Shown: positions 19,069 through 42,266, numbered from the stretch's first letter. The stretch: DNA of 64,000 nucleotides from Flaccisagitta enflata (GCA_965153355.1 OZ231126.1:7936001-8000000), one strand, 5' to 3'. Made by a program: numbers and translations. The notes: generated from the sequence alone by a model not told the origin.

Positions 19069-19783
19069 GATCAGATGGATGTGAGGGACTACGCCTCCAC
19101 AGTTCAGCACAATCATCTGGTACTCTTTCTTGTCAATGGCACTTGTATCAAACAGGTTAGAATTATGGATCTTTTCTTTCTGGTTGGATTGTTGTCTTAA
19201 ATTATTTCATGATAATGCTAAGATAAACTTTGTTATTTTGACTACTAAGGATAGTTGTGATGGGTCCGGATTAAACACCAGTGAGAGCTCCAAAGGCTCC
19301 CATCCTTAAGTAAAGTGGGATTGAGTAGTGATGTTGTCCAACTTTCATATATTTCAGTACCATGGTATAGAATGCCGGCGATCCCATATGGTTGATTCTC
19401 GATTCTTGCCTCTAATGGTATGGTTTTTAACAACATTGCCTTTGAGATCTAGATTATCTTTGGATAGCTACATCATCATTTGGTAATTTGTATGCTATAA
19501 ATAAAAGGGATATGCTAACTACTTTGCATCTTTTATTTTGGGTTGACATGGAATGTTTGAGGGAATGGTCTCATTCAGTGGAGAGGGTTTTGATTTTAGG
19601 TTGTGGGTTGCATGAACCTTTTACAATGGGAAGATCAGATGGATGTGAGGGACTACGCCTCCACAGTTCAGCACAATCATCTGGTACTCTTTCTTGTCAA
19701 TGGCACTTGTATCAAACAGGTTAAAAGTATGGATCTTTGCTTTCTGGTTGGATTGTTGTCTTAAATTATTTCATGATAATGCT
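19069..19783. repeat. ~565-bp dispersed repeat in partial tandem duplication, truncated by the CACTA end
   Basis: 19069-19218 recurs at ~19635-19783; a further copy lies at ~913-1287; class unknown. Confidence 0.8.
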
Positions 19784-20335
19784 CACTGTAGAAAAAGACC
19801 AATGTGGTCGGTTACCGACCACGTTGGATTACCTTGGGTACTTGTTCTAGTAACGTGGTCCTTTACACCTCCTTTACAAATCTTATGTGGATTACCTTTT
19901 CCCCACAAAAAGTGGTCCTTGACGGATTACGCAAAAATTAAAGTGGTTCTTTGTCGCAAAAAGGGCGACGGGAGCCGCTTTAATTTTTTAAAAACAATCG
20001 TGGTCCGTAACGGACCACTTTCATCTTGTAGAAAACCATTTTTGCAAAGAAAGTGGTCCTTTTAACAGACCACACATTTTTTTTTGGGGGCTGGGTCCCA
20101 TATAAAGTGGTCCTTTAAAAGACCATTTATTTCTTATATAGTGGTCCTACGCTAGACCACTTTCTTACTCGATTATGGATGGTACCTAAAAAAGTGGTCC
20201 TTTAAAAGACCATTTATTTCTTATATAGTGGTCCTACGTTAGACCACTTTCTTACTCGATTATGGATGGTACCTAAAAAAGTGGTCCTTTAAAAGACCAT
20301 TTATTTCTTATATAATGGTCCTTTACAAGACCGCA
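19784..20335. repeat. CACTA subterminal repeats: multiple (AA)GTGGTCC...GACCA(C) short palindromes, including ~88-bp tandem units at 20103-20332
   Basis: Direct reading; direct and inverted short motifs next to the TIR are typical of CACTA ends. Confidence 0.8.
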
Positions 20336-22603
20336 TAATTTTTTTTTTCGGTCCGTCGGTCGGTTGGTTGGTTGGTTGGTTGGTTGGTTGGTTGGTCAGT
20401 CAGTTGGTTGGTCGATCGGCAGGTTGCTTGGTAGGTGAATCGGTTGGTAAGTCGGTTGGTTGGTCAATCGGTCAGTTGCTTGGTAGGTCAATCGGTTGGT
20501 CTGCTAGCCTGCCGGCCGGTCGGTTAGTGGGTTGGTTGGTTGGTTGGTTGGTGTGTCGGTCTGTTGGTTGGTGGGTCATTTGGTTGTTTAGTCGGTCAGT
20601 TTGTTAGGCGATATGTTGTTAAAAGCAAAAAAATTACTTTGCTGTTATGGCCAGTAAAAATAAAAGAAAAAATTTTTTAGACTTAAAATTTGATGTAATA
20701 AAAACAAGGCCAAGTAGGGCAATAAGGTGCAACGTGTGGATCGTCGAACGAATGCGTTACCCAACCAACCAACCAACCAACCAACCAACCAACCAACCAA
20801 TCGACCAACGGTCACAGCCAGTTAAAGAGGTGCTTTGTCTTCCCATAAAATAATGTAAGTTTTCCTTTGAACCAAAAAGTTTGTAAAAAAATTAACCCCA
20901 AAAAAATTAACCCATAAATTTGGTCTGAGTGACCTGCTGTTGTTGTTGAATTATTTTGTGAGTGAGCTGATGTTGTTGCCCAAAAAAAAAAAAAAAAAGT
21001 TGATGATTAAATTCCTGCATTTTTTCTTTCACCCAATTTTCTTTAAAAAAGGAAATTTTAACATAACTTTGAAAGAAAAATTTTTTCATGAAAAAATTTT
21101 CCAAAAAGGAAAAAAATTTTGAAAACAGCTACAGGCTGCTTTTCTTTTTGGGTACTGCACCTAAAAATTTTTTTTTCTTTTTGGAGAGGGTAAAAAAAAA
21201 TTTTCCATCATTTTTGTTTTTACTTCAACTGAAAAAAGGTCATATGCAACAAGTGTACCATCCAGAAAAAAATTTTTTTCCTGTTTAACCAGAAACAATC
21301 GTAAGATTTTGTACCATTCTCGTTTTATTTTCCTTTTTCTTTTGTGGAGACTGCGGTCAGCGGTTTGTTTCTGTGTTTAGTGTGTTTGTGTTTGAGTGTG
21401 TTTGTGTTTGTGTGTGTGTGTGTCTGCGTGTGTGTGTGTGTGTGTGTGTTTGTTGTGTGTATGTGTATGTGTGCGTGCCTGTGCGCGTGTGTTTAAACAT
21501 TTTTTTGTGTTGTTGCTCCAATAACATGGAAAAAGGGAAAAATTGAAACAAAAATTCTTAACTCAGAACCCCCCAATTTTTTATTTGTTTAAGAAGGAGA
21601 AAGGCAAAGATAAGGTAATAAGCCATCATTTATTAAAAAAAAAAAAATTTGAAAAAAAAACAACAAAACGCCAAATTAGCAAATCACAGAGAACCAAGAT
21701 CACAACATATACGCAATGTTTTTAAAAAAAAAAGGAACTTATCCCATTTCTAGTTTAAGGAAGATCGGACGTAAACAAAGCAATTCAGTGTGTGTTAATT
21801 GAAAACGGAACAGAAGGTTCTAATGCTTGCATGATTATGGCACAGATGACGATAAAAGAAAGACAGTATAACGAAGCAGATGTTTTTGGATCATCCATAT
21901 ATATGGATGATAAGGACACCTTGTAATGAAGAAATCAGTTAACTACTCTTTACTATATTGAATAAGAATGTAAACAAGTTCTTTATTCTGTAAAAAAACT
22001 TTTTACCTCTTACTTTCACTTTGAGTTAAAAACCGTGTGTACTTTAAACGAAAACCTGATCGACATTTCTCAAATTTTCTTGTTTGGGGGTGTTGAAATT
22101 GCTCATTTTGACGATAGGGTCATTCCTTTTTTCCTTTTTTTTCCCCCTCACCTGCATGGTAATTGTGTGCTCTTCTCTCCCCCCCACCCAAAAAAAAAAC
22201 GTCTGTATGGGTTTTAATCATCAAACCTAAATAAAACAAATAATACTGATCTGTTTAAACTTAAAAAAAAAAAAAAAAAAAAAAAGAAAATCCTTAAACC
22301 AGAAAGAAACTGTTTAACAAAAATATTTAAGTTTCCCACATTAGGCAGGTGCAAGAAGTAGTATTTAACCATCTCACCTAATATAAAAAAACATTTTTCC
22401 AAAACTTTTTTTTTTTTAATGTTCTTGTTTTTAAACAATTTTAGTCATCAATGTTTAATGATCACTGGTATGACTTCTAGAAACGGCATGGTAAACAACA
22501 AGGCCAAGTAGGACAATCATGAGCAAATTGACGCTTCATTGTACAAAGGTTGGCCAAAAAAAAAATTAAAAAAACGCGAAACCGTACATGTCCCAAAACC
22601 TAA

Positions 22604-25600
22604 CTAATCATTCTCTTCTTCCGAGTCAGACTCTTCTTCAGAGTTTGAAGAGGTCAAGGTTGTGTCTTTGCGATTGTTTCTTTCGTCATCGGTTGACAAG
22701 GGGGAAGTCTGCGTGTTCCTCTCTTGTTGCTCGTCCTCGGATTCATCGTTATCATCAGGCGTCATCTCAACCAAAGTTTCGGTCTCGAAACGTAGCTCTT
22801 GAACGACTTTTGATTTTCGGCCTTTGTCTTTGTCTTTGTCTTTTCCGCCTTTGTCTTTGCATTTTCTTCCTTTGTCTTTTGATTTTCTGCCTTTGTCTTT
22901 GTCCGTGGTGGGTCCGCCTATTCCGCGATATCTCACCGTCGAGATCTCGATGTTTGGATCCTAATGGGTGCAAGATGCAGTAATTTAGAGTATTTACTTT
23001 TGCAAATTTTCACATAAACTGCGATAATTGTTTAAACAAAACATGTTAAGATTGACCAAGCAACCAATTCATCAACGTTGATCTATTTCTTGCTTTGTCA
23101 ATCTGGAACCCCCTTTGTTTTTAAGAAAAAATTATTGCAATTAACTTGAAAATTTGCCCAAGTAAATACTCTAATGCTCCGACAGATACAACCGTACAGG
23201 TCACCAACAACAAGACCAATGTCCAAAAAAAAAAAATGTGAGCCATGTGCCCTACCTCTTTGTGACGCAAAGAGGGAAACTTCGACTCCTTCTGGCAACG
23301 TTCATCCAGGTCCAACTGCATTTGCCGCATATTCACCAACCGAATTGGTTGGTTTCCTGTTGCTGTCACTCGAAGGCATGGTTGGCGGAGTACGATTCTG
23401 CATTGAAAGAGGTGGTGATGGAAAACCATTAAATAACAAGGCCAAGTAGGCCAATAAGGTGCGACGTGTAGATCGTCGAACGAATGCGTTACAGACCAAC
23501 AGACGGACAGAGCCAGTTATAGAGGTGCTTTGTCGCACCAAAAAATGTAATGTATATTTGCCATTCCTCTATCCATCCATTGACCCATCCATCCATGCAT
23601 CCATCTATCCATTCATCCATACATCAAATGACCTATACACCCATCCAATGACTATGCAGTCATACATCCATTTACTCATCCTCTCCCCCCCCTTCACTGT
23701 GTACCTTCCCATCCCTTTTTAAAATCCTATGTCCATAAATACATCCCTCCAACTAAGTATTCATAATTAAAAATCACATTGTTCCAACACATCACTCTTC
23801 AATCCATTCATCCTAAAGAAAACCAAAAAAAACCCACCTATGTATCCATCCATGCAATCATCCATTCCTGTACTATAAATATATCATGCTTTGAAATTCT
23901 CTTCATGAGTATTCATGAGTATTCATGAGTATTCATGAGATTTCATGAGTACGCTCACCTGCCAAGGAAAGTGTACTGCGCCATGAAGTTGCGGCATAAA
24001 GCACCCATCACGTTTGTGTTGGGTTTTTTGGTCCTTGAACGTTGGTAATGGGCCTCCTTCTGCTTTGCTTCATCTTGCTTTTGCGCTCCTGGCCCTTTAG
24101 TCCTCGTTATCTTGGCCAGAAGGTTTTCTCACTTCATGAGTGGCCAGACGTACCATTTGATGAGGAGATCTGTCACAGCGTGTGGTATTTCCGTTCCATC
24201 AGGGTTGAATAACGGAACCTCCTCCACGACACAGTGCTCAGACAGTAGGGCCCCTTTGGCTTTCCCACGGTCAAACCCCCGTCCATCAAGGGGGAAATCT
24301 TTTTGGGTTTTGGGAAATTGGGGCAGGGTAAAGGTGGATGGGGTAATAGGGTAATGAAAGTGAATAATTAGTATTGTAAATCATCAATGTTGTATTTGTT
24401 AGCTACTCTAATTAACAAAAAAACTAATCTAAGACATAAGTTTTTTCAGGAATACAAATAAAGGAAAATAGAGGAAAAGGAAACAGTTGATGTACATACA
24501 ATGGCGATGTAGTGTTGATGTACATACAAAGGCTAGTGTTGACCATACAGTCTGTATGTAAAATCTTGGATATTCATTTTTTTTCATATCTTAAACATTT
24601 CTACGTCTAATTACATGAATCAAGGGTAAGCTTTTACCCAGGCTTACCAAGATTGGGAAGCCGATTCTGTCAACCTGGTGCATGCTTTGTTCTTAGTTGC
24701 GTGCACGCGACTCTACAACCCGCTTTAGTGCTCTGCCGTGCAACGGTGGGTTGGTCTGTTCCTTGGTCCGTCACACTTTCCTTTTTTGTACTATAACTTT
24801 AACTGTTAGGTAATTTTAAGTCATTTTAAGTCATTTTCAGTTATTAAAAGTCATTTTTAGTCATTCTAAGTAATTTTTATTTTTTTTAAGTCATGATAAG
24901 TTATTCTAAGTTATTTTGGGTCATTTTTTTTAAAAAGTCCTTTTTGGGCCTTTTTAGGTCATTTTAAGTACTTGAAAGTCATTCTAAGTCATTCTTAGTC
25001 ATTGTAAGTCATTCTTAGTCTGCAAGTCTTGCAGGGGACTTTTAGGTGTTGGCCTTGTTTTCATTCCCCTTTCATATACAGCAACTGCAGGACCTGGTTG
25101 CTCTCATGTTGCTTAGCATTGCTACCATGTTACCCTGAATCGGCTTCCTGGGTTCAAGTAGGTAAAACATTGTGTCCCTGATCTGCTTCACCACTGTGTA
25201 TGCCAAAGAAAATATATTTCTTGGTTTTCATCATTCAAACATACACTCGCTCAAGAAGAAATTTATTTTCTTTTTTCTTGGTTTTAATCATGTGAGGTTT
25301 TTGAAGAATGTCCTCGCAATTGTATATGATCGTGTCCGTTGGTTGGTTGGTTGGTTGGTTGGTTGGTTGGTTGGTTGGTTGGTTGGTTTATTGATTGTTC
25401 ATTGTGTTGGTTGGTTGGTCACCCTAAAAGAAAAAAAAAAAACGCTGAATATGAGATAGTTTTACATTCCTCCCACATCTCATGATATACCTCATTATTT
25501 TTTATTCATCCAAATTTTTTTTTTCATTCATTCATTCATTCATTCATTCATTCATCTCTTCAATCATTCATTCATTCATTCATTCATTCATCCATTTCCA

Positions 25601-28600
25601 ATATCAATGCCTTTTTCAAGGAAACACCAACTTATTGGCCTGAACTTTTCACATTCTAGGAGATAAAAAATATCTAAGTCTAAAGAACAATAAAGGTTAA
25701 GAGATTGAAATCCTTTTGGACCTATAACGGCAAAACGTAGAACTCCCCCATATCCACGCAGCGAAAAATGGCTCAAGGGGCGATGAGTTTCGTTCAACTT
25801 TTTTTTTGTTAGTGGGTAGGATAATGTATTGTTGCAGTAGAAAAGAATTCATATAGGTGTCATGCATAAATATTAGGGTGAATAAAAGATACCTATATCT
25901 ACTTGGGCATGTTTCCAACTTTATTATCGATTGTGTTTGTTAAGCCATTACTAAATAGTGTGTACAAAGAAAAGGAAACTTTGTTTAATAGTGCTCTGAT
26001 GTAACTCACTTGAAGAAACAATCTTTGCCCCTCGTATGTTTTGCCATCGGATTTCATCGCTTCCTAAAAAAAAGGAAAAGGAGTTGGGGAATGATTAATC
26101 CTTTTTTTTATCTTAAAAGCAAAAGTATGACAGCGTTTGCACACTAAGTATGTACATATTTTTTTTCATGTTAATAAAAACCTAAAAAAAATTTGGTTCA
26201 TGTGAAGGATTTACATGTTTTTTTTGGATAATCAATTCATCAAATTGTCTTCATGTTCTCACCATGGACTGGTCGACAGCGTACTCGCACAACTTGGCAG
26301 TCTTGAAATTTGTTCCCAGCTCCAGAACATTGTGATGGACGAAGTCCCTTCCCTCCTTTCCATCGGTTTCGTCATATTGCTTTTTGGCATCTTTGATAAT
26401 GCGCGGCAAATAATAATCTGCAAACTGGCTCACCCGATGTCGCAATCCTTCAAAACCCATTGGCATAAAGCTGGTCATGTAATTGTTCACGACGTATTTG
26501 GTCATCTTGGTGTAATCCTAAAAAGTGAAATCCATGCAGGACATTAGCCCTATTGAGGAAAACCCTTTTAGGTGCATGTTCACGTGTAGTTTTGCGAATG
26601 GGGGGCACATGGAGACTACCTATTTATTAAACCTCTCTCACCTGCGCAACGGAAGGGAAGTGTGTCTTCATATTGTCAAAGTACTTTCCCACTCCCGCAC
26701 AATAATGTTTCAGTTCTGGCGTCACTGCGCAGGCCAGTACCAAAAGCTGAAAAAAATGAAAATGGAAATTTCCAAATGTTACTCTCCCACTAGTCTTCAA
26801 TTCCCTTTCTCCAATTCTCTTTTTCTCTGTGGTGATGGGGGGGGGAGTGTAAGAGAGAATAGGTGTCCATTTCTAACCAAATTAAAAGAAAAGCAGAGAA
26901 ATGTAAAACAGTTACTTTGAGTATGACGGGTTCATCCTAAATAACTTTACCATGAGCTTATCCTCCTCTTGATCGTAGCAGCCTGGGCTGTTCTCCATGT
27001 CCTTTATCATCCCAGCAAAGTCCTCGTCCGTACTGTCCAATACCCCAAAGTCAACACCGTTGTCCAACCTCAGTTGTTCGGAGGCTTCTTTGGGAATTAG
27101 GTTGTGTTTGGCATCGCGTTCGTTATACAGATCCCACTCCATTTTTGGTTGACGACCTAACAATAAAACGGAAAGATATCCTAATTAATGCATTTGTGTA
27201 CAATTTGGCAGAAGTGGTCATGTGAAAAACGGGGTGGTAATGGATGGAGGCATGGACTGATTTACTTCAAGCTGGCTAGTTGCTTTTCTTGGAATTAACA
27301 ACATGAGGTAAGACCTTTCACACTTAATATATCTCCCAAAAAAATATATACAGTTATTTCACTAATTTGTTGTGAACGTTACCAACCTGTTCCGGATGTT
27401 ATGTTGGATTTCCTCCTCACTTTGCTTTGCTTCGTTGTGTTTAACCCCTGCGCCAATATCCTACAAACTGAGTGTTGATCCTTCATCGAGACCCCAATAA
27501 AGAATCCCGGGTATCGCTTATCGAGCCAGTCAAAGAATGTCCTGACTCCGTCAACACCAGTGAACAGAATGCGAACTTTTCCGGGAATTTCGAATTGATT
27601 TTTGCCTTGGTTTTTCTTCATGATTTCAACGAGGGAATCCTAGAAAGGGGGTTTAGGTAAGATTTTACTGGTTTTGTAAATGTAAACGTGAAATAATAAT
27701 TGTTTTTCCTTTTTTAAAAGGAAAATAAATAATTTCTCATTTACATTTACAGAACCAGTTAAATTATATTACATTACATAGTGATTCCCTACTATCACTC
27801 ACATTAAGTCCCAAGGATCTTCCCATATTAATCCAGGCATCTTCACGTGTTGAATCTGGAGATTTCTCGTTGACGAACTTCAAGGCGTTTTCGAAAGTCA
27901 AGGGTTCTCCCTCTAGGTGTGAGATGATGTTTTGGATCCGGGGAAGTGCAACCTTTTCCCAAATCGAGTAAACCCACGCAAGGGGTTCTGTATAGGAAGA
28001 ATTTGGGTAATGTAAAATAATTCATGGCTGCCTAGTTTGTGTGTGTGATAAGGCTATGATAAAATGACAACCAGACTGAAAGGTACTTGATTACAGTGGG
28101 TTTTGGATGTGGAGTTGTGGTCCTATAAAGGAAGTCTGAGCAAGTAAGAGATAAATTAAAAGGGACAAGGTAAGGATGTAAATGGTACAAAATTTGGCTT
28201 CCCCTTGCAACCAACTTCTAAAGAAACCAAAGAAACTAAAGAAACCAAAGAAACCATAGAAACCAACCCGTGAAATCGTTCTTTGTCGGCATTTCGGGTT
28301 GATACACAAATATGTCCTCGCTCTTTCGTTGATTTAACTTTGCGTAAATATAGCCCTCTTGAAGTTTAACCAACATGGGCGTCTCCCCGCTTGGGAGGTC
28401 CATTCTGAGGAATTTCGCCCATTCGTAGATATCCCCTTTTAGCTTGTCACAAAGGAAGACATACAGGTTTTTATTCCCCATGTCTGTCTTCTGTTGGAGC
28501 CATTCGACGTGGACCTCGAATTTCTGGCCCAAATCAAAAGGTGGATATTTTTCGTCGACTTCTAGGTTTTGCTTATGAATGTATTGCAGGAAAGTCATGT

Positions 28601-31600
28601 CTGAGAAAAGAAAAAAGAAAGGTTTTTAAGGGTAATTACTTGTGTAATGGTTGTGTAATAACAAAAATAACCGAATTACTGGACCAGATTCATTTGATTC
28701 CATGTAAACACTTCAGGAATGCATTTAACACTGTTTGTGCATGTATATATTGGCAACTGTCATTTTTTTACCTGCAACATTCAGCTCATTCAATCGGTCA
28801 GGTACCCCCATCTCCTTAAGGTTATCACAATGCAGATCAATGAGACATGGATCGTCTGCCTTGTAGACTTGTCCATCCTTTCCCGCCTTCAGCTCACGGA
28901 TCCTTTTAAAATCGAAACTCCTCTCCAAGTGTAAGTCGTATCGATTTTGACCGTCAGCAACTGAGGACACAAGAAATTGTTACATGAAACTTTTTCCTTA
29001 AGTTTTTTTGGGGCAAACCAGTGCAAAGGTAGAAGGTGTTGCGCTGGTAGACATGTAGGAATTAACACAGCCAAGTGTGGATCGTCGAACGAATGCGTTA
29101 CCCAACCAACAGATCAACTGACCAAACGACAGACACAGCCAGGTATAGAGGTGCTTTGTCGCACTCAAAAACTTGTCCTATGGCAATTATATTCCATTTA
29201 CTGCTGCTCCAGCAACTCTTGGCTAGTTTCCTGCATATAGCTATAGTAGTTTTTTCTAGGCCCAAACATTAAATAGTTGCTTACTTTTGTGCCAACGTTT
29301 TTTAAATTCAGCATTAACTGCTTCTGAAGCGGTTGTCTCGGTCCACACCCCTGGAGTTGCGGCAGGAGCGTTTGAGGTCGATGAGGCCGAGGCTGTTGAG
29401 GCTGAGGCTGAGGATGCCTCAGCCGACGGTTTCGAGGTTGTGGGAGAGGTGGAAGGTAAAGACGCTGAGGCAGAGGATACCCTGGCTGCTGATTTTGAAG
29501 TTGAGCGAGACGCTGAGGCAGAAGACGCCCCAGCCGCTGATTTTGTGATGGAGGGAGAGGCCGAGGATGAAGAGGGAGAGGTTCGCGGGGCTTTCGATTT
29601 AGACGTCGAGCGAGAGGCCGAGGCAGAAGACGCTGCGGGAGAGGATGCCGCGGCAGACGATATTGATGTTGAGGTAGATGAATTGGGGGTTGATGATATA
29701 CTGTGGGCCCTTTTGGTTGCTTTTCCGCTTGGTTTCTCGGAAGTAGTTTCCACCACAGTTCGCAGTTGGGTCAACGCGCCTAAGGCGTAAAGAGTCAATC
29801 TCTCCGTCTTTACTAGGTTATTCACCCTCACCTTTTTTTAGACATCAATTCTTTAAAAATTTCCAAATAATGTATGGACCTGTTTCTTGTTCCTTCAATG
29901 ACGTTTGTTGTACTTCCTCCACGATCATTTTACGAATCTTCCTCTTATTTCTCTTCTCCCTCCTCTCCTTGTTGTAATCGTAATCGGAATCTGTGGATTA
30001 AGACATGTAACAGTGAATTTTCTTAATGGCATGTGAAGTCATTGTAGGGAATACAGTTCAGTCAGTCTTTGCTTTTTTTTACTATTTTGGAGAAATACGG
30101 TTTCCATTTTCTTATTACTGGTGACCTGAGTAATTGTTTTTCCATTTTTGGTCCTTACATAATACTTACATATTTCATGTTTGGGGAAAAAAAGTTCTTT
30201 AAAATCACTAAGTCATCCAACTATTTCCACTAATTGATCATCACTTCCACTTCTACAACCTATTCCAAGTCTCTATACTCACCCAAATCGCTGTCATCCA
30301 GATCTACCGAATTCCGGGCGTGGTATGTTAAATTGCCAGACCCTATATAATGTAGATTAAGTTACAAAAAATTTGTTAAAGAGGCTAAAAATTTTGTGCC
30401 TCTTTAACAAATTTTTTTTCTTATCTTAAGCCCAACATTACGTTTTACTCACTCACCTTGTGTGGATGCATTCCGTTTGGGCGTTTTGGATTCGGACTGG
30501 GAGGGTTGGGAGGTCTGAAGTGGGGTTGATGTTGGCGAGGAGAAGATCGAGGAAGTCTCATATCGTTCGCCACTCTGGTGGGAAGGATCCTCTGTTGGCC
30601 CACAAACACCTGTTTATTTGGTAACAGAAATGGGAATGCAATCTCCAATACTGTTACGTACCCATTGGAATAATCGACCAATACAAGTCCACTAATGGTT
30701 AGAATTACCATGTTCGCGCATGTCTACGTCGTCGCCTTTACCCATTCCGGCATCTCCTCCAAAATTGACGGAGTCCGGCGCCCTTTTTGTTTTATCGCTT
30801 GACAAGCCTCGCTTTTGGATTACAGTGTCCATCTTCTCCCTTAGCTGTGTGTTCGGTCCAGGTCTTTTCTCGCCCGGTGCCGGTCTCGGGCCCGGTCCCG
30901 GTCGGTGTTCTGGTCCCGGTTCTTTCTCGCCCAACCTATCAGGTGCGCCTCCGAACTCATCCCTGTCCCACCCAGGATCACCTCCCAAAACATTCTGACC
31001 CTCGTTCTCATCCTCGCTGTCCATCTCCCTCTCCTCTTCCTCCTCCCTGTCATCAACCTCCTCCATGTCGTCTCCAGGATCTGTATTGTCTCGTTCCTCA
31101 TCCATTTCTGAGTCAAACCCAGAGTTGAAGTCGGTCGTAACCGTCTGTTGGCCTTTTGTAGCACATTTCGGTATGACATCAAAACGATCAAAAACATTCA
31201 TGTTGTCCTCTTGTTCACTATGTTGTGGAACATGTGATTTTGACTTTGAACCAGTAGACCCTGCGTCCCTGTCTTCCATCCTTTCTCTAGGCGGATGTTT
31301 TGAGGGAGGTGGCGAGAACGACGCTTCTCTTGTCAGACGTTGTGAGTGAGGAGATGAGGGAGATGGTGGACGTTTATGGTGAGGAGATGACGTAGGTTGT
31401 GTGGAGGTAAAAGATGGGAAGGATTTGGTTTGGGATGAGGAGGGGCTATTTTCCATCGCTTTCTTTTTTCTTCTTACCTCTCTCTGGCTAGTAAAATAGG
31501 ATTCTGAGGATATGTTGGTTTCCGGGCTGTTTTTGAAGGAGGTACTTTGTTGTAAAAACCCGAAGGAAAGTTGTTGTGGTGAGGAACGTGCTGAAACGGT

Positions 31601-31672
31601 TGGATCGCGTGAGGTCACCTCTCCATCCTGCGATTCTTGAGAATCCCCTCTTCCCCCCCTTTTTTCTGACAT
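22604..31672 (-). CDS. Large multi-exon (~17 exons) gene of unknown function inside the CACTA element; low-complexity N- and C-termini, globular core; probably partly decayed
   Basis: Phase-compatible GT-AG exons: 31672-30709, 30609-30457, 30342-30283, 29990-; then 28960-28772, 28600-28268, 27987-27803, 27639-27387, 27156-26951, 26746-26642, 26517-26263, 26063-26010; terminal exons ~24300-23960, ~23397-23255, ~22960-22604. Junctions at 29.0-29.9 kb and 24.3-25.8 kb unresolved; in-frame TGA near 24130. Confidence 0.75.
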
Positions 31673-31835
31673 TGTTTTTACTCTGTTTTTCAGTCTCTGA
31701 TGTTATTAGTAAATGGTCGCTTAAAAAGATTCAAAGCAAACAAGTCATCAGTAGGGTCTCTCACAATGCCATAAAGAACTAAAAAGAAATTCAAAGGGCA
31801 GGAAATTCAAAGGGCAGACAGCGAGGGGGATTGGA

Positions 31836-31845
31836 ATTATATAAC
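31836..31845 (-). promoter_or_regulatory. Possible TATA box for the large cargo gene
   Basis: TTATATAA ~165 bp upstream of the ATG at 31672; AT-rich context makes chance occurrence likely. Confidence 0.25.
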
Positions 31846-31974
31846 CAAAAAATTTTTTCTATTGTTATTGCTTGCGTTATTTTGGGAGAACTTGATGAAT
31901 AAAAGCATTTTGTTCATAGCATCCGTTTTTTCTTGTTGCGGATACTCCCTCGTCAGTAAACCTTGCGCTGGATA

Positions 31975-32754
31975 CAGAGGGGCGAACGTTAAAAAAAATT
32001 TTACAGGTTTTTAACGTTTTGTAACGCTTTTTTACAGTTTTTAACAGTTTCTTACAAGAAAAAAATTTAAAGAGGTGCCCGCATTACTTTTTTAACACAC
32101 ACCATGTGCAGTTAAAAACTCCTTCTCGATAAGAACTGTCTTGTAAAATTATTAAAAAGAGCTTTTTAACACCTTAAAATATCTAACAGGATATGTTAAA
32201 AACCTTTTTAACTGGGTGTTAAAAACCTTTTTATCCAGTTAAAAACCTTTTTAACACGTTGTAAAAACAGTTTTTAACATACTGTTAAAAACCTTTTAAA
32301 CAAGTTGGCAAAAAAACCTTTTAACAAGCTGTTAAAAACCTTTTTAACAAGTTAAAAACCTTTTCAACAAGTCAAATACCTTATTAACAAGTTAAAAACC
32401 TTTTTAACAGGTTTGTGAAAAACTTTTCAACACGCTGTTAAAAACCTGTTTACCAAGCTGCTTAAAACCTTTTTAACAAGTTATCAAATAACTTTTTTAC
32501 ATGACTGTTGAATAAAAACAGTTTTAAACCTCTCAAAAAGCATTTAAAACCTGTTTAACCACCATTTTTTACGGGGACCCTAGCTTTTTAACAGTTTTTA
32601 ACAAGTCCCTGAATTAAAAGAGGGTCCCCGCTAATAAAAACTTTTAAAAACTGTTAAAAACTGTTATAAACTTTTAAAAACTGTTAAAAACTGTTAAAAA
32701 ATGTTTCTAACTTTTAAAAACCCGTAAAAATTTTTTTTTCGTTCGCCCCCTCTG
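31975..32754. mobile_element. ~780-bp MITE with CAGAGGGGCGAACG TIRs and 4-bp TSD GATA (possibly Academ-like)
   Basis: GATA|CAGAGGGGCGAACG...CGTTCGCCCCCTCTG|GATA; interior of GTTAAAAACCTTTTTAAC palindromic repeats. Confidence 0.8.
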
Positions 32755-33256
32755 GATATTCGTACCTATGGATATGTATGATATGACTAAAGATCATCTT
32801 TACCCCTTCCCACATTCCCCCCCCTTCACCACATTCCCCCTCCCTTCCTCAGGTCTTATCGAGAAGAGTAAGATGGTCAGAGTAAGAAGGTAATCTCTCA
32901 CACCGCATTTCCCTTTCAATGTTTTTTTTTCTACTATTGTCCCATACGTTTCCATCTAGAAGAAAGACTGACAATCCGTTCACTCGTTCGATTTTCAACG
33001 TGTTTAGAAATCTCCATTCGTGCCCGTGTTGCCATCATCTGGAAAAGGATTTGGTATTACATAAAAGAAGGTCTCCATTGTCATCCAATATGTTCTATCA
33101 TTTTCATCCACAGTAATACAAGGCCAAGTAGGCCAATAAGGTGCGACGTGTGGATCGTCTAACAAATGCGTTACCCAGCCAACTGTCAGACCAACCAACC
33201 CATCCACAGACGGACACAGCCAGTTGTAGAGGTGCTTTGTCGTACCAATAAATGGG

Positions 33257-34468
33257 TTAAGCATATGCAGGGGTCTCACCATCGTCGTTGTCTTCATCAT
33301 CATCATGACTTTCGGTGTTAAACTCGTTTCCTTCATCCTTCGCCTTTTTCCCGTTAACCCCGAAAGGAGTTGGACTCTTCTCAATGATTGCCCGTCGCCT
33401 TCTTTTCAATGGACGCAAGTCACCCAGATCTCCTTCACCGCTTGCATCTTCATCGACTGGGGTGAGGTGGACATCATCCCCCATTGGCTGTAGGGTAAAA
33501 GGATAGGATCGTCAGGCCAAATTCTTAAGCATGGATGGGAGCTAGGCCAACGAATAGCCCCTATATCCCTACCCTGCACCCCCCCCCTCCCGTTCAACGC
33601 TTTAAACAATTTTTTTTTAGCGGACACGCGACTACACCTTACCAGTCAGTTGGTCCGTGTGTCGCTCTGTTGGTCTGTCATATTTTCTAATTCAAAGGGT
33701 TTTTTTTCATTACTGCTCCTGAACAACCGTTTGTGACTGGATGGCCGTGTATCTGTCCTTGTTTTACATACTTGGAGGTTTTCGTTTTCCACCACCTTCA
33801 ATCGTTTTCGACTTTCAAAAACCGGTTTCTGTTTCTGTTCTTCAAAGTTTTGGGCGCCATCGTTGTCACTCAGTCCGTTTCCACCCTCCGAGCTGATGAG
33901 AAAATCGTCTCCCATAGACTGTGAAGGAAGGGGGAAGTAAATGTTGAAAGGAAACATTTGGGTTGAACAAGTAAAAGAAATGGACAATAAAATCGCCAGT
34001 TCATACTATCTCCCCACCCCCAACACACTTGGGCTTCAAGAGTTATCAAATCAAACTCACAACGTGGGGTGTTTCCAGGTGAGTTGGGAACTCAAATGAT
34101 TCCTCGATCTTTGGGATGGGGCTCAAGTGGTCGAAATCCGAGCCGAATGAGAACAACTGCTCCGAAGATGAGTCGGTCTCCTCCGAAGATGAGTCGGTCT
34201 CCTCGTAACCTTCGTTTTGGCCATCCGCATGGAGTTGGTCGTTGTAAGAGCTGTCGTTGTAAGAGCTGTCGTTGTAAGAGCTGTAACTAGTATCAGTAAG
34301 GAGAGGCTCGATGTCCGAGTGCGGAGAAGAGACGTCCGAAATGGAAGATACACCGGAAATTTGCGACAAATCGATTGTGTCGTCCTCCGGACCGTAAGAA
34401 GAAGAATCGAGCGTGACATCTTGAAGTGTTTTCGACACCGACTCTTCCTCGACTTTCTTTTGTGACAT
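33257..34468 (-). CDS. Acidic, Ser-rich spliced ORF inside the CACTA element (>=3 exons), unknown function
   Basis: Exons 34468-34061, 33918-33772, 33487-33280 (or to the stop at 33257) with phase-0 GT-AG junctions; KRRRR basic cluster; ATG ~90 bp downstream of the transposase stop. Confidence 0.65.
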
Positions 34469-34557
34469 TGCGATTGAGAGTTATGGATTTATTTTTTAGG
34501 AAAGAGGGTTGGCATGGACCTGAACGACCAAACCAAGAAGTCATGAAAAAGACAAAA

Positions 34558-37500
34558 TCATGGGATTAATGCAACCCATTCATTTAGGGGATTTTTCTCA
34601 TAGTCATATCCGGTATAAAGAGGACGGCGCAAATAATGATAAGAGGAAGTATGATCCTGTTCGTAAAATGTTGACTTGAATTCCTCTAAGAGGACTACGT
34701 TAAACCTTTTGTTGGGAGTTTTTTGGTCAATCTTTGGAACACGTGTATGGGGATCAATTGTAACAGAAAAAACCTGTCCAAAGAAGCCCAATTTTGATGA
34801 ATCCTCTTTTGCTATGAGTAGATTATCGATTCGAACAAACTCGGTGTCTGATTTGAAGTAAAATGTTGTCTTATGAAAGTTGGTGTTAAGTATAGTTAAG
34901 GTTGCGAGTTCTTCAAAGTCCCCTTGACCAAAGGTTTTCCATAAATCCTTTGTTCGCTTTGAAGTTTTATTCCTTTTAATACGTATGCGTGACCCTTTCT
35001 TCTTCCAACTTCGTAGAGGATTGAGGATGGAAAACCGATTGGAAAAGAAGGCCGCTTTACGTTCATGCATGAGGGCCGGATACTTTACGATCGATTTCCT
35101 GTTATTGGCCTTCACAACCGCGGTTTTAAAAATTCGATGACTGTTCTCTCCTCGTCGTGTTGAGCTCCCCACGGGTGCTGGGCCAAAATCCCTTATTCCC
35201 ATCGGCGCATGAAGAAGATAATGGTCCTGTACATTTTATGAGGCAATCAAGGCAATAAGCATTAAAAATCAACACGACCCCGGACAAATTGATGACTCAA
35301 AAAACAAATTGCACAAGATGGAGAAAGTAGCTAGTATTTACCTTTGGTTTAAGAGGAGGATTGTACATTGATGGTGGTTTCAGTCTTGGTTTCTTTTTTG
35401 GAGGCGCCTCCTCCTCTTCATCCTCCTGGTTTTCTCCCTCTGGTTCCTCATATTCTTCCTCATCATCCTCACACTCTTGCGTCTGATCATTCTCAGTCTG
35501 AGTAGTAGTTTGACTGCCGCAAGGACCACGCTTCCGTTTTTGACTCGGAGTATTGCCTTTTTCCTGCTCCCTTTTCTTTTTCTCATCATCATATTTCTTT
35601 AGGTCGGAGGCATAACTGGCGTTTCGTGTAAGGTCCATTCTCAGCTTATACATGTTCCAAAGAAGTTTTTCGATTTCCACAATATCCCCCTCTGTTACAT
35701 GGTTTCTGCAAAACAGCTCGTCTAACTTGGCCAATGTGTCCAAGAGTTTGAATTCCTTTGTCAGGCAAATTGCTCGATAATCATTGAACGAATGAAAGGC
35801 GACTTGTCAGTTGAAGGGTTGTTGACAGTTCGGCGAAAGAGCCTTGAAAAACCGGGTGTGGAGTCCCTGTCCAATGTTTCTTTGAAAAGGGAGGGACCGG
35901 ATTTTTTTGATGCCTCCCAGTTTTCCGTGGGATGACTCTGTACTTGTCGTCTAATTCTTCAATCGTGAATCTCTTCTTTGTTAAGAGAGATTTAATGGCA
36001 ATCCCAAAGCATTCTTTGGCAGCTCCTCCGTGGAAGTTATGCCAAACGTCCCCTGGCAGGTCCCTGCCCACATCAAAATCAGTCAATCGCCTCAGTGGTG
36101 TGTCCTGGATAACGCCATCGATATTGAATGCGAAATTTTCCCGACGGTCGCCCAAGAAAGAAAGGAATTCATCAGCGTCTTTTGCAATTTTATATTTCTT
36201 CTGTTCGATGTTGCACTGTCTGCAGGGGTGGGTCATGTGGTGGGGGGTAAAGCTTATGCTGGTAATCCAGCTAACGTGGATCATGAGCTTGACCTCAACG
36301 ACCACCCAAAATAAATGACTTTGTCATTCCCAACCCCACAACTGTTTCTGTGAGGGTGTTCAATTGGTCTAACTTTCCAAAACAACGCTATAACTAATTT
36401 CCTAGATCTGGATTGATTTGAAATGTTATAGTGATGAGTGACAGATTTTATATACATGAGTGAGGGGCATGTGATATACCAAGACTATTTTTGAATTATG
36501 CTTGAGAAAAAAACTACCATCCAGGTCAAAAACAGCAAAACACAGTAAAGACACTCTGGCCTGGCTGAAGTTGGTTTTTGATCGCGTGCACACGACTTAT
36601 AACCCGCTTCTGTCGGTTCATCGGTCGGTCCGCTTGGTCGGTCGGTCCGCTGGTTTCGTCGTAATACTTAGCTTTTTTGTCGTTTTACGCCATTTTAAGT
36701 TATTTTAAGTTTTTGTTGTTTTTTGAATTATTGGTTGCTTATCATTTTTGGGTCGCTTTGACATTTTGTCAATCATTATTTTTGGTCATTTTGGCTTCAA
36801 TTTTGGTCGATTTTATTGGTTTTGACTGACTTGGATCGACTTGATCAATGATCATTTGTCATTGTGGTCATTTTTACTACCGCTTGGTCATTTTTGGTCA
36901 TTTCGGTCATTTTGTCATTTTTGGTCATTTTATTGTTTGGTCATTTTTGGTACTAATATTTTGGTCAATTTTAATTTTTGATCAATTTTGATCAATTTTT
37001 ATTAGTTTTTGGTCAAATATATCATTTTATTTCATTAATAATATTTTTGTCATTTTTTAAATCATTTTATTGTTTTTTATTATTTTAATATTTTTTGGAT
37101 CACCCTGACTAATTTTGACTGGAACTTTGATCATTATTGGTCATTTTTGGTCATTTTGGTGGTTTTGATCATTTTGGTCATTTTATTCGTTTTGGTCATT
37201 TTGGTTATTATAGTCATTTTTATTGGTTTGGTCATTTTTGTTGTTTTCATTATTTTTGACGTTCCAATCATTTTAGTCACCTTGATCATTTTGGTCGATC
37301 TGGTCATTTTGGTCGTTTGGGTCATATTTTTTATTATTTTATTATTTTGGGCCATTTTTGGCCATTTTTGGTCATTTTTATTCATTTTTGGTCATTTATA
37401 ATAGTTTTGGCTATTTATCATTTTTGGTCATTTTTACTTTGGATCATTTTTGGACATTTATCACTTTGATCATTTTTGGTCATTTTTATCACTTTGATTA

Positions 37501-39656
37501 TTTTTGGTCATTTTTTGGTCATTTTGGTCATTTATGTCATTTTTGGTCATTTCTGGTCATTTTATTGGTCATTACATTGGTCATTTTATTGGTCATGCTA
37601 TTGATCATTTTATTGGTCATTTTATTGATCATTTTATTGGTCATTAAATTGGTCATTTTATTGGTCATTTTATTGGTCATTTTATTGGTCATTTTATTGG
37701 TTATTTTATTGGTCATTTTATTGGTCATTTTATTGGTAATATTATTGGTCATTTTATTGGTCATTTTATTGATCAGTCTGTTGGTTATAGTACAGGTTAG
37801 TTCGCTGGTCATGCCATTGGTCAGTATATTGGTCCGTTTATTGGTCATTAAGCCCGCTGCAAAGTTCGATGGTAAAGTCTACTGTTTAAATCTGCTGATG
37901 AATCGCTGTTGGCGCCCATAGTTGAATCTAATGCTGGTTCAGCAAAGCCCGCTGGTTTGAATTCATATGAGTCTGCTGGTTTAAGTCTGCTGGTTTAAGT
38001 CTCCACAATAAAGTCTATTGACCTACTGGTTTAAGTCTGCCAGTAAAATGATATTAATGTGATATGAGCGGTTTAAGCTCCGGCTTATTCATGGTTCGGC
38101 AGGTTCGGTTAACCTGTTTGTCTGGCTTAAGTGCATGGCCTGTCTGTTTAAGTCTGTCGGTTCGCCGCGCCCGGCTTGGCCCGCTAGCCCGCCGGCTCCG
38201 CTTACGCTTGCCGGCCCGGACTATCTGGTTTAACACTGTCTATGCCTGATTTATGTCTGGTTTAGGTTTGGGTTAGGTCTGTTTAGGTCTGGTCTATGTC
38301 TGGTTTTGTCTGGTTTATGTTTGATTTAGGCCGATTTAGGTCTGGCTGGTCTGTCGAGCTTCGGTCGGATCTGTCGAGCCCAGTCGGATTTCGCCATCGG
38401 CCGCGCCCGGTTTGATTTCCGGTCGGCTTCCGTTGCTCTTTGGCTGCTTCGTTTCGCCCGCTTGTCTGGTCGGAGTCTGGCTGAGCCTGGTTGAGCCCGG
38501 CTGCAAAATAAATTTTACTTTGTCATTCCCAAACTTACAAACTGTTTCCGTGAGGGTGTTCAATTGGTCCACAACTTTCTCCAAAACAACGTTATAATTG
38601 TACTTGGTGATCTGATTGGATTGGCACATGCCTAGTAGCAGGACACATTTTTCAGTGGTGCTATGAGCGGTGAGGTGTATAAATATGTATATACCCAAGA
38701 TCTTATTTTTTGAATTATGCTTTGTAAAACCACGATCCAGGGTTAGGTCGTCAGCAAACACAGTAAAGACAATGCCCTTTTCGTCTGGTTGAAGTTTTTT
38801 CAGTTTTTCCTTTATTCGATGGCCGTCGTATATGGATAAATACCTCACCTTGTGGTGTTCATTATTTGCCAAACATTCCTCATTGTAATTTTTGTTTTCC
38901 TCCAGAAATTCTTTGGACTTCTCCCATAACTGGAACATCCCCTCTGTGTTCAAAAACCGTTGGATAAGCTTTTTGGGGTCAAACATGAGGATAAAGTCTT
39001 TGGGGTTTGTGTCGTTACTCACAAAATAATGGATGTATGGTTGGATGATATTTTCCCTTTCTTGAAATGTTTGTTCACGTTTGTATTTGGTTTCAAACTT
39101 TGCAGAATGGAAGGGATCAGCCAAATGGTTTTCAAGTTTTTCTCTCATCTCACGAATGGGGGGGTCGTGTAGCTCCACTTGGTAGCGATTGAGAGTATCT
39201 GTAACGATGGACAGGACTGTTTTTCTTAAGATTTCACCAATATCTGCCAAACTTTTTCCAAGAACATCTAGGGCAGTATCTTGCACGCCATAAATATAGC
39301 GCAGACTGCCATACATGGTCTGCAGTATGGGGCATATCTCATCAACATGCTCCATACTTTGAGAAGAACAAGTGTTGTTTTCTGGGGTTGCATTTGGGTT
39401 TGGAGCATTGTTTGGATCGCTTGTGCCATCACCTTCATTGTCATCCTCTACATCAGCTTCACCAGGATCCACACCGTCAACTTCAACTTGATCTCCATCT
39501 CCATTATTGTTTTCACAGTTTCGCACATCTATGTTAAAAGGGATGAGCTCGTTTACGTGTTTGTTAAAGCAGGACTGTGCCCTTTTTTTCACGGCCCAAT
39601 TCCGAGAACATCCTTCAAAGATACAGAGTACCGGTAGTGGTTGCCGGAAATCATGA
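34558..39656 (-). pseudogene. CACTA/EnSpm-type transposase, disrupted
   Basis: Segments 39656-38505 (IYDG...VFADD...KNKILGIY...KYNYNVVLEKVVDQL), ~36309-35781 (HPCRQC, GV, PGDVWHNFHGG), frameshift near 35790, 35743-35342, intron, 35226-34558 (PK|DHYLLHAP.GIRDFGP...RRGENSHRIFK...NNRKSI). Motif order matches animal EnSpm transposases. Confidence 0.85.
36576..38503 (+). mobile_element. HINE-like element with TTTTGGTCA, TTTTATTGGTCA and GTCTGCTGGTTTAA satellites, interrupting the transposase
   Basis: 5' TCGCGTGCACACGACT plus GTCG microsatellite; same repeat series as 44212-45878; 3' end missing or garbled. Confidence 0.75.
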
Positions 39657-39666
39657 NNNNNNNNNN
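39657..39666. other. Assembly gap (10 N)
   Basis: N run; sequence character changes across it. Confidence 1.
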
Positions 39667-39882
39667 CGGCAACAACAGGTTCAGTTACTTGTGCAGCAAC
39701 AACAGCAGCAACAACAGCAACAACAACGGTCATCAAGCGACTCAACGGCATCGGCAACAACAGCAACAGCAACAACAACAACAACAACCAGCAACCACAG
39801 CAGCAGCAATACAATACAGCAACAACAGCATCAAAACAACCACAATAACAGCAACAACCACAACAACAACTAAACCAAAACC

Positions 39883-40187
39883 ATGTCACCACGCACATGT
39901 CATCACTTCGGATGGGAGCCTCTGTTACCCCCGCCTCAAGACCCGGCACCGGATGAAGAGCAATCGGCAGCAGCAGCAGCAGCAGCAGCAGCGACAAAGA
40001 CGACGCCGTCAGAATGTGCCAAGAATGCCGACGCGCAATCGGCGACGGAATCGGAAGCTGTCTCGAGGATGCAGGCGGAAGCGGAAGCGGAATCCATGGA
40101 GGAAGAGGACAACAACAAGTTTGGGAGGGCGTTGAAAAATAGTAACGAAGTGGAACTGCACAAGTCCACCATGTCGCTCAACCTAAA
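39883..40187 (+). CDS. Probable exon of an unidentified gene (Ala/Glu-rich, ends ...STMSLNL)
   Basis: GC-rich open frame ending at a strong GTGAGT donor (phase 2); preceded by a CAA/CAG tract; no recognisable homology. Confidence 0.4.
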
Positions 40188-40468
40188 GTGAGTGTCTTGA
40201 TATTCTGATATACAGTTAAAAACCTTTCTAACGAAGCCCAAGGGATCTTGGTATTTTTTCGTTATAGGCAAAGTTCGCTGTAGCCATAGAGAAACAATTG
40301 CTAGTAATATAGTAGCATAAACAACCATCAGAATAGTTTTGTTCATTTAGAACAACAACATAAAAGTAATGCGGTACAAAATAGCATAAAATCACACACA
40401 CACATACACACACGCTATACACACATACACACACACACACACACCCACACACACCCCCACACCCACAG

Positions 40469-41008
40469 GTGGAGCTCAACGTGGGCAAAAACCTAGTTGG
40501 CAGCGCATTGGCCGGTTCCGTCGGAGGATTCAACGCTCACGCGGCCAACATCGTCACGGCGTTGTTCTTAGCTACGGGCCAAGACGCCGCGCAGGCCGGC
40601 ACTTCCTCCTCTTGCTTGACATTCATGGAGTTGACGGGCGACGAAGGTCGGGACTTGTACGTGTCTGTGACAATGCCGTCCATCGAATGCGGCGTCGTCG
40701 GCGGAGGCACCAGTCTGCCGCCACAACAAAGCTGCTTGAGACTTCTTGGCGCCGGACGAGAGGGAGGAGGAGGAGGCGCCGGCGCCGTTGCTGCGTCCCG
40801 TGGCTCCGGAGACTGTTTAGCCACAGAATCTACTGAATGTTTGTCGGAACCGGGTAAAAAGGCCGAACGTTTGGCGACGGTGGTGGCGGCGACGGTAATG
40901 GCCGGAGAGTTGTCGCTGATGGCGGCGCTGGCGGCGGGACAGTTGGTCAATAGTCATTTGAGACTCAACAGATCGTCGGCTAATTTGAAAGCAGACGCCG
41001 ATAAGTGA
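40469..41008 (+). CDS. HMGCR: HMG-CoA reductase (class I), last coding exon of catalytic domain
   Basis: [25 protein letters not shown]...[42 protein letters not shown] acceptor at 40466-40468. Confidence 0.96.
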
Positions 41009-42266
41009 GGGATGAAGGGAAATATAACAACGACAACAACCACCACCACCACCACCACCACCACCACCACCACCACCACCACCACCACCACCACCACCAC
41101 CACCACAACAACAACAACAACGTGATGAGAGAAGGTATCGGATTTGTAAATGGCATAAGCACTGCCATTGGCGGTGAAGTAAAAAACTAAAAAAAGTGAT
41201 GAGAAAATAGGACAGTTTGAGTATATGGAGAAACTAGAAGTCTTGACGAGAGTGTCGGCGAGAACGCTGACTTCCAGATTGACTGTGAATTATCAGAGCT
41301 TCGCATTTGCTAATGCATTTTCTAAAGGAATATCTCTGTCTGAATCGCGCTCTCCACCTTTTAGATGCGTCCTCGCATCTCTATAAGAGGGTATGTCCGT
41401 CGGTCGGTCGGTCTGTTGGTACGTCCGTTACGCAAGTGCAAAAACCGCGTTTCTCGGCTGTTTTTGGCCACGGTGAGATCAACCAACATGTTTTGAGAGC
41501 CTCATTTACAACTTAGTCATTTCATGCGTCTGTTCGTCCATCTGTCTCTCCTAATATGACTCATGATCAATACACGCAGAGACAAAGCCCGGACGCATCG
41601 TTGCCTGGTCGGGCTTGTTCTCTCAATCGTCATTCCCAAACTCGATGCGCCTTTAATCCAAAGTCAATTGAAATCGCGATTTTTTTTGTTTCTCAGATTA
41701 TTTATTCTCTTAAATAAAGCCCTTCCGCCCTTCCAGGTGACCGCACATGGTGATCAATGACTGTACAGAGCGCTTATTCTTATCGGGGGAAAAATCAAAA
41801 CCAAAACAAATTAATTTAGAAATTCGTTCCTTTAACTTTAAGCTAGATATATAGTTATGATCCAGCAATATTCCATACGATCTAATTGCCTTATAAAAGC
41901 GACAATTGTAAGGGTAAGGGTAAGGGAACTTCAATGCAATGAGCTTTTAAACAGTCTTTTCTTTCTCTCTTTCCTCAATTCTATACTTTCCTTTTTTCTT
42001 TTCTTCCTCTCTTTTTCTTTTCTTTTCTCGCTTTTAAATTTTCTTTCTCCCTCACTTTTTCCTTTTCGCAATTGTTTATTTCTTTGCTAAGCCTCGGCCT
42101 TGTAAAATGTCAACGCCCTTTACTTTCCGTTTCCAGTCAATTTAAGGTGAATGTAGAAATGCATTTGCGTAATTAATCAATGAAATTATCAATAATCATG
42201 ATAAAATCGTACTAAACTTGTTCATAACTATCTTTCCTAATAACTGTAAATCAAAAGTAATTCGAA

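Follow-up and report, generated by a model that had tools for sequence, protein, structure and literature searches.

The stretch of DNA analysed here, referred to as the window, comprises 64,000 nucleotides (nt) of the Flaccisagitta enflata assembly GCA_965153355.1 (OZ231126.1:7936001-8000000). The block under study, positions 19784-39656, is bounded on the left by a CACTG terminus that cuts a satellite and on the right by an assembly gap. Between them lie a gene for a DDE transposase, an acidic open reading frame (ORF; gene 2) and a long multi-exon orphan gene (gene 3), and the question is whether these parts belong to one large transposon of the CMC (EnSpm-Mirage-Chapaev) group. A reading made earlier from the sequence alone (the sequence-only reading) had claimed three co-oriented minus-strand coding regions, and these are borne out at 39655-34561, 34468-33257 and 31672-22604. 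The features on which the argument depends are listed below; a slash marks a splice junction.

19069-19783, no strand: flanking satellite, one whole 564-nt unit and 151 nt of the next, ending at 19783
19784-20335, plus strand: CACTG terminus and subterminal region, with GTGGTC(N5-9)GACCAC palindromes over about 550 nt
22604-31672, minus strand: gene 3, long multi-exon orphan, ATG at 31672, stop codon at 22604-22606
31286-30709, 28960-28772, 28600-28268, 27987-27803, 27156-26951, 26517-26263, 24298-24154 and 22960-22604, minus strand: robust exon candidates of gene 3 from an exon-chain model
28268-28600, minus strand: exon E4 of gene 3, acceptor ctcag/ACATG, donor ACGG/gttgg, the sole exon with outside support
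33257-34468, minus strand: gene 2, acidic ORF of about three exons, ATG at 34468
39655-34561, minus strand: transposase gene, coding part, stop codon at 34558-34560
38504-39655, minus strand: codons 118-501 of the transposase (last part of the zinc-finger region, helical domain and first catalytic residue, D419)
36275-38503, no strand: repeat-rich insertion of 2,229 nt, replacing 36 nt that correspond to codons 502-513, including D507
35342-36274, minus strand: transposase codons from about 514 to 825 (C(2)C, helical part, acidic tail), with a frameshift near 35806
35227-35341, minus strand: transposase intron of 115 nt, phase 0 (AAG/gtaaat...tacag/GAC)
34558-35226, minus strand: final exon of the transposase, containing H(3)H, GP and E, the last residue of the catalytic triad (DHYLLH...RRGENSH)
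39657-39666, no strand: assembly gap of ten N, the only gap in the window

The block was compared with outside reads from two DNA runs (X1 and X5) and two RNA runs, X14 as contigs and X24 as raw reads. Sequences from X5 are 2-3% diverged from the window, and the seven X1 contigs listed are colinear with the block and differ from it at 1-7 positions per 600-2,500 nt (0.1-0.6%). Contig depths in X1 and X5 do not equal copy number, and unitig depth also splits with haplotypes. In X5, a run of 1.1 billion letters, contig depth reaches about 1,000 wherever the block is unique, much more than a large genome covered evenly could show. Outside the assembly, the stretch is represented in marine metagenomes and in the runs of two coded organisms.

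The left boundary is sharply defined. The satellite is built of 564-nt tandem units, and its last 151 nt (19633-19783) are 98% identical to 19069-19219. A third copy, at 911-1293, reads through the break point uninterrupted: the intact satellite runs ...ATAATGCT and then AAGATAAACTTTG, whereas at 19784 ATAATGCT is followed by CACTGTAG. The continuation of the satellite is absent to the right of 19784, and its other matches in the window are confined to 1162-1293, 911-1012 and 17321-17378. Moreover, DNA contigs of both X1 and X5 stop exactly at 19783. Inside the boundary, short motifs are densely clustered. In particular, AAGTGGTCC occurs seven times in the window (expected, 0.36; a count of seven was reached by none of 100 shuffles), and six of these copies fall within 19910-20287; of the window's 20 GTGGTC sites, 10 fall within 19804-20281, and of its 10 GACCAC sites, 5 fall within 19817-20242. 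The palindrome at 19799-19827 has 14-nt arms (93%), and an 87-nt unit is repeated 2.5 times at 20104-20322 (98% alike). Position 19784 is confirmed as a credible transposon terminus of the CAC..GTG type that cuts a repeat, and both the CACTG end breaking a flanking repeat and the palindromic subterminal repeats of the sequence-only reading hold.

The end reads CACTG and not the CACTA pentamer of narrow-sense EnSpm/CACTA elements, a family to which elements with CACTG ends are also admitted. Of a pair of CAC..GTG inverted ends, a single one is seen, and it carries short-motif arrays in both direct and inverted order. An inverted partner of the 17-nt end, sought on either strand with up to three mismatches, is absent from the 64 kb, and the window contains no second cluster of GTGGTC/GACCAC motifs. 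The possibility, allowed for in the sequence-only reading, that a nearer terminal inverted repeat would pair with this end and exclude the genes thus finds no candidate within the window.

The transposase gene is preserved in large part and broken in two places. The 439-codon frame at 39655-38339 is 99% identical to P0003, a protein of 837 residues from public marine assemblies (cluster of 13). Residues 118-501 of P0003 correspond to 39655-38504, with 382 of 384 residues identical; residues from about 520 to 668 correspond to approximately 36250-35805, and residues 669-837 to 35806-35300 in a different frame. The identity of 99% holds over codons 118-501 and 669-837, and codons 1-117 are hidden by the gap at 39657-39666. 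All database proteins of the P0003 cluster end inside the 115-nt intron, which is the only real intron of the gene. An intron had also been considered for the 2.2-kb break in the ORF, and this was rejected: DNA contigs of X1 (2,564 nt; shorter side, 255 nt) and X5 (side of 109) join 36274 straight to 38504, and because these contigs carry the uninterrupted form, the apparent intron is an insertion. In X5, the 36 nt between 36274 and 38504 encode, as the reverse complement, P0003 residues 502-513, including D507. A 1-nt frameshift relative to intact relatives lies near 35806; this aside, comparison of the X1 contig with the window over about 2,100 nt shows 3 letter differences and 7 gap letters, and the contig extends 430 nt past 39656. 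The transposase copy in the window is dead, as its second catalytic D is gone and its frame is shifted, and intact alleles exist in other samples. P0164, another member of the cluster, is also frameshifted.

The insertion at 36275-38503 has features of its own. At its start it carries a decayed duplicate of about 90 nt of the target (36307-36393 versus 38504-38597, 85%), and it contains 10- and 12-nt tandem arrays with a depth of 10^3-10^4.

Relatives of the transposase are numerous. A search of 1.8 billion representatives returned 223 at E<=1e-3, among them an uncharacterised protein from Anneissia japonica, a crinoid; P0003 has no relative in the JGI metagenomes or IMG/VR, and the 24-nt end has no match in either. 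The N-terminus of P0003 carries C2H2 zinc fingers, beyond which no sequence match to solved chains was found. At the curated cut-off, Pfam Transposase_21 (PF02992) matches neither the window ORFs nor P0003. Among 81 relatives in the Pfam scan, Transposase_21 scores below threshold in six (20.8-24.6 versus 28.6 bits), Plavaka below its cut-off in one, and DUF4218 above its cut-off in one and below it in another. The last exon has no Pfam match of its own; it aligns (E 4e-4, single comparison) to the DUF4218 stretch of P0151, which scores 28.2 bits against a cut-off of 27.

The catalytic residues are recognisable in this Pfam-invisible protein. D419, D507 and C529xxC532 (P0003 numbering) are invariant in 23 of 23 sequences, the C(2)C motif being C529-R-Q-C532. 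In the last exon, H5, H9, G18, P19, E30 and H33 are invariant in all eight aligned sequences; H5-x3-H9 forms the H(3)H motif, and E30 follows 21 residues further on. Intact relatives thus hold the DDE triad as D419, D507 and E30, of which D507 is the residue deleted from the window copy.

The predicted structure points in the same direction. The AlphaFold (AF2) model has a mean predicted local distance difference test score (pLDDT) of 68.9, with residues 220-520 and 570-730 mostly at 70-95 and dips at 425-430 and 629-633, and it shows a strand-strand-strand-helix-strand order around the catalytic D residues. Foldseek comparison of the model with solved structures gave 44 matches at E<=1e-3, the best of them RAG1 (E 3e-8); the RAG1 and BbRAGL rows listed are all inside this cut-off. 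The model aligns with RAG1 at Z 12.2 (root-mean-square deviation 5.2, 379 aligned), with the amphioxus RAG1-like transposase BbRAGL at Z 10.5 and with the Transib transposase HzTransib at Z 9.7. The structural alignment stops at RAG1 residue ~925-949, short of E962 (E962Q in the structure titles). The invariant H(3)H..E block lies beyond the RAG1-aligned part, and the triad is therefore complete in intact genes; the spacing of H and E in the last exon resembles that of H942 and E962 in RAG1.

It has been reported that the EnSpm-Mirage-Chapaev-Transib clade is marked by D, D, C(2)C, H(3-4)H and E and by CA..TG ends (PMC12730594), and that Chapaev elements have CAC..GTG ends and 3-4 base pair (bp) duplications (PMC4079192). 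The protein shares these residue marks and has a RAG1-like fold, and therefore falls into the CMC/Transib clade. It is a member of the CMC DDE group that lies beyond the reach of Transposase_21. The minus-strand CACTA-type transposase of the sequence-only reading is accordingly retained as a CACTA-related CMC DDE gene, with the catalytic set found in its relatives and a RAG1 fold. P0003 and nine relatives carry HN..GG at P0003 positions 589-595, where 25 of 28 other members have HD..EG, and in a quick tree the bearers of HN..GG (10 of 10 rows) fall into one deep clade with 99% support. An early proposal that this clade is catalytically dead through loss of E was withdrawn once the H(3)H..E block was found in the last exon. 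The analysis has shown a new branch of CMC transposases that is invisible to Pfam, common in marine samples, and characterised by C2H2 fingers and the clade motif.

Gene 2 begins 89 nt behind the transposase stop, and neither gene 2 nor gene 3 contains a Pfam family; across the block, 42 minus-strand and 68 plus-strand ORFs yielded chance or low-complexity Pfam rows only and no real family. On the minus strand, the crude exon-chain score of gene 3 reaches 114.8; the plus strand scores 71.6, and five shuffles score 19-31. The model has 26 exons, some of them implausibly small, and about eight are robust. The sequence-only reading had described an acidic ORF of three exons and a further ORF of about 17; the presence of both and the approximately three exons of the former agree with the present analysis, whereas the figure of about 17 could not be confirmed. 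Relatives of exon E4 are limited to one at 95% (cluster of 27) and one at 62% (cluster of 3), with no homologue among longer proteins and no Atlas match, and its predicted model (pLDDT 42.8) is of no use. Identity is 62% in E4 versus 63% in the adjoining intron. The exon is thus conserved no better than the intron, as is expected of a sequence drifting after insertion.

Several repeats are nested in the block, among them units resembling short interspersed elements (SINEs) and one resembling a miniature inverted-repeat transposable element (MITE).

20340-20851, plus strand: (GGTT)n microsatellite and SINE-like unit (20700-20851, with a (CCAA)n core), X1 depth 2,021
23432-23547, plus strand: SINE-like unit inside gene 3, X1 depth 6,700-37,000 (bins of the copies at 23432-23547, 29075-29171 and 33115-33254)
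31979-32749, no strand: MITE-like element of 771 nt, with 72-nt inverted ends (83%) starting CAGAGGGG

Unique bins beside 20340-20851 have an X1 depth of 4-15. The SINE-like unit is about 150 nt long and is present in four plus-strand copies (20700-20851, 23432-23547, 29075-29171 and 33115-33254), in which the head (AAGGCCAAGTAGG...) and the tail are conserved and enclose a (CCAA)n-like middle; its depth in the DNA runs is 10^3-10^4. It has no tRNA or Rfam match, and the Rfam and tRNA scans of the whole window gave none either. The MITE-like element, whose interior is an array of GTTAAAAA..TTTTTAAC palindromes, is situated between gene 2 and gene 3. When this element and the SINE-like unit are subtracted, the spacer between the two genes is about 675 nt.

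Taken together, positions 19784-39656 have about an even chance of representing most of a single large CMC cut-and-paste transposon, its downstream end included, that persists as a dead copy in a satellite. That this would be a single RAG1-related CMC transposon of at least 20 kb with three genes of its own, namely a zinc-finger DDE transposase, an acidic protein and a 9-kb orphan gene, is held somewhat more tentatively. The sole terminus and the sole transposase in 64 kb match in type, and no end lies between them. The coding parts share one strand, with the transposase read in the direction of the terminus, follow the En/Spm order and, leaving the nested repeats aside, are separated by short spacers, and the extra genes are orphans. 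Moreover, divergence from X1 is similar along the block in the seven contigs listed. On this evidence, a single element is the most economical interpretation.

In such an element, gene 3, the 9-kb orphan with its many exons, would be a cargo or accessory gene, by analogy with maize En/Spm, where the transposase lies upstream, the accessory exons follow downstream and the downstream terminus carries an extended subterminal array. In an intact copy, the zinc-finger/transposase protein would pair two CAC..GTG ends, perhaps assisted by an accessory protein that binds the GTGGTC..GACCAC palindromes, and excision would be followed by reinsertion with a duplication of 2-3 bp, which at this site would be CT or GCT. 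The gap would then contain the missing end, this duplication and what remains of the satellite.

A number of observations weigh against the single large transposon. At 20 kb, the element would greatly exceed the 4-10 kb typical of CMC elements in animals. The window lacks the far end, the duplicated target site and the second part of the cut satellite, and no contig of any other run covers the span from terminus to transposase. Unique parts of the block are represented in X1 by a single contig per place, with no sign of several copies or of mobility. X1 depth is 5.5-7.5 over the transposase and gene 2 versus 12.3-15.3 over gene 3 and the terminus; this twofold contrast could mean two units of differing frequency, though split haplotypes are equally able to produce it. 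Gene 3 itself looks like an ordinary host gene, with its length of about 9 kb, its many introns and its high-copy intronic repeats, and in the same sources the amino-acid diversity of exon E4 is 7.0% versus 1.0% (26 of 807 columns variable) for the transposase, a sevenfold difference. As for expression, raw RNA reads of X24 reach a depth of 0-0.4 on the genes, none of them spliced and none over the transposase, and are confined to repeats (90-99% alike). The RNA contigs of X14 are unspliced and touch gene 3, with none on the transposase; a loose poly(A) end in RNA at 22574 lies on the strand opposite to gene 3, and no splice joint was found among the 15 joints listed out of 343. Of the one large three-gene CACTA element described in the sequence-only reading, the terminus, the CMC transposase and the layout have stood, and the unity is left as an even chance, given an unassembled far end, no spanning contig or second copy, and uninformative RNA.

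The strongest competing explanation, possible though clearly less probable than a single transposon, is that three separate neighbours adjoin here: a two-gene CMC element of about 6 kb (without the insertion), gene 3 as an unrelated and fast-evolving orphan of the host, and the solitary terminus of another CMC-type element. The downstream end of the two-gene element, expected near 33 kb, would have eroded or would lie under the SINE-like unit and the MITE, and the partner of the terminus would have been lost by deletion or rearrangement. Such an arrangement would accommodate the intron-rich structure of gene 3 with its nested repeats, its diversity in excess of that of the transposase, the X14 contigs that fall on it and not on the transposase, and the 4-9 kb usual for two-gene elements of the group (PMC1636069). 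It would also fit the step in X1 depth from 9.7 (31.7-32.4 kb) to 6.7 (33.7 kb); however, depth differs merely twofold, and unitig depth is subject to splitting with haplotypes. Three neighbours would, moreover, require two independent losses of a transposon end inside 20 kb. Neither a terminus-like sequence nor a GTGGTC/GACCAC cluster occurs within 20.4-39.6 kb, and the lone terminus is of the very type expected for the lone transposase.

It is improbable that the transposase-like gene has been domesticated, or sits immobile as a single-copy gene of the host from a lineage-specific family, with ordinary host genes as neighbours and the CACTG end as a relic of the source element. Domestication would explain the single X1 contig per place, the recurrence of the same arrangement, piecewise, in the 2-3% diverged X5 (including the contig end at 19783), the deep clade with its own HN..GG motif and the low amino-acid diversity of the transposase. 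However, D, D and E, together with C(2)C and H(3)H, are all kept. The window allele is wrecked by both an insertion and a frameshift, and P0164 is frameshifted as well, which is unexpected for a needed gene, and a complete-looking terminus persists with tandem subterminal units that are 98% identical. The listings of the literature searches contained no relevant report of a domesticated EnSpm gene in animals or of CACTA elements in copepods.

Finally, a chimeric assembly in which the contig joins non-neighbouring pieces, for example across high-copy repeats, is very improbable: six bins with a repeat depth of 10^3-10^4 in X1 do interrupt every outside contig, and the gap at 39657 abuts a gene whose upstream exons are missing, but the window is continuous from the satellite through 39656, all seven X1 contigs listed are colinear with it, and every coding part lies on one strand.

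The gap hides the upstream end of any element, the remainder of the satellite, the upstream exons of the next gene and transposase codons 1-117. That next gene, to the right of the gap at 39874-41005, ends in the last exon of an HMG-CoA reductase (40385-41005, plus strand), which covers profile positions 229-368 of 368 only (E 1.5e-46); a candidate exon at 39880-40190 has a good donor and no Pfam match. An Atlas search with the reductase exon yielded no usable taxon. Upstream HMG-CoA reductase exons are found neither to the left of the block nor inside it. Because the reductase begins only at profile position 229, the gap must be either large or a mere scaffold join. Further right on the plus strand lie a host gene with a BTB/POZ domain ORF (42261-42857) and an open frame of 480 codons without a Pfam family (49015-50454). 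To the left of the block, 5197-11577 is a mobile-element-like unit whose inverted ends (5197-5834 versus 10940-11577, 638 nt) are 98% complementary; it contains many internal inverted segments, and its ORFs of at least 75 amino acids are without a Pfam family.

If the single large transposon is real, it would be by far the largest and most intron-rich element of the CMC group reported from an animal-like genome, and its third gene would be a candidate for a partner of a RAG1-fold transposase, with an end-binding or regulatory role. If the block moves as a whole, CMC elements, which are kin of the ancestor of RAG1, can reach 20 kb and carry a complex spliced accessory gene in a marine eukaryote, and such an element would offer a natural three-protein system for asking which partners are required by a transposase with a RAG1 fold. 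Annotators should refrain from labelling the three ORF groups as host genes until there is further evidence. The break in the transposase, in turn, illustrates how a polymorphic insertion that knocks out a catalytic residue can pass for an intron.

Among known systems, maize En/Spm, with a size of 8.3 kb, offers the closest layout. Both have a CACT-type terminus and, next to it, extended arrays in which short motifs run in either orientation, a transposase upstream and accessory exons (in the window, candidate ones) downstream on one strand, and a DDE transposase tail with a DUF4218-like H(3)H..E block. Unlike En/Spm, the window has a CACTG rather than a CACTA end, its protein has no Transposase_21 match and carries N-terminal C2H2 fingers, and the candidate element would measure at least 20 kb. 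Spm is described as a single transcription unit (PMC1636069).

The record of CACTA-like elements in animals that yield more than one product begins with SmTRC1 (PMC1636069). SmTRC1 of Schistosoma and TRC of Aedes and Tribolium resemble the candidate element in their animal hosts and in having several ORFs or products per unit; their 2-bp duplication would be compatible with CT here, and their sizes reach up to 9.2 kb (PMC1636069). They differ in having a clear Transposase_21 and CCC ends (PMC1636069); the window protein branches off at a greater distance, and the length of the candidate element is double theirs. Chapaev and Mirage elements have 5'-CAC..GTG-3' ends, of which the window shows one, make duplications of 2-5 bp and occur in invertebrates (PMC4079192, PMC12730594); they are usually single-gene elements of a few kb. 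In pufferfish, the CACTA elements flanking a 100-kb mobile region lacked recognisable ends (PMC9191631).

RAG1, ProtoRAG (BbRAGL) and Transib share with the window protein the order D, D, C(2)C, H..H, E and are the best structural matches of its predicted core. Unlike the situation in RAG1 and ProtoRAG, no RAG2-like partner was recognised, given that no block ORF contains a Pfam family. The kind of transposase found here is already known, whereas a 20-kb, three-gene CMC element would be new.

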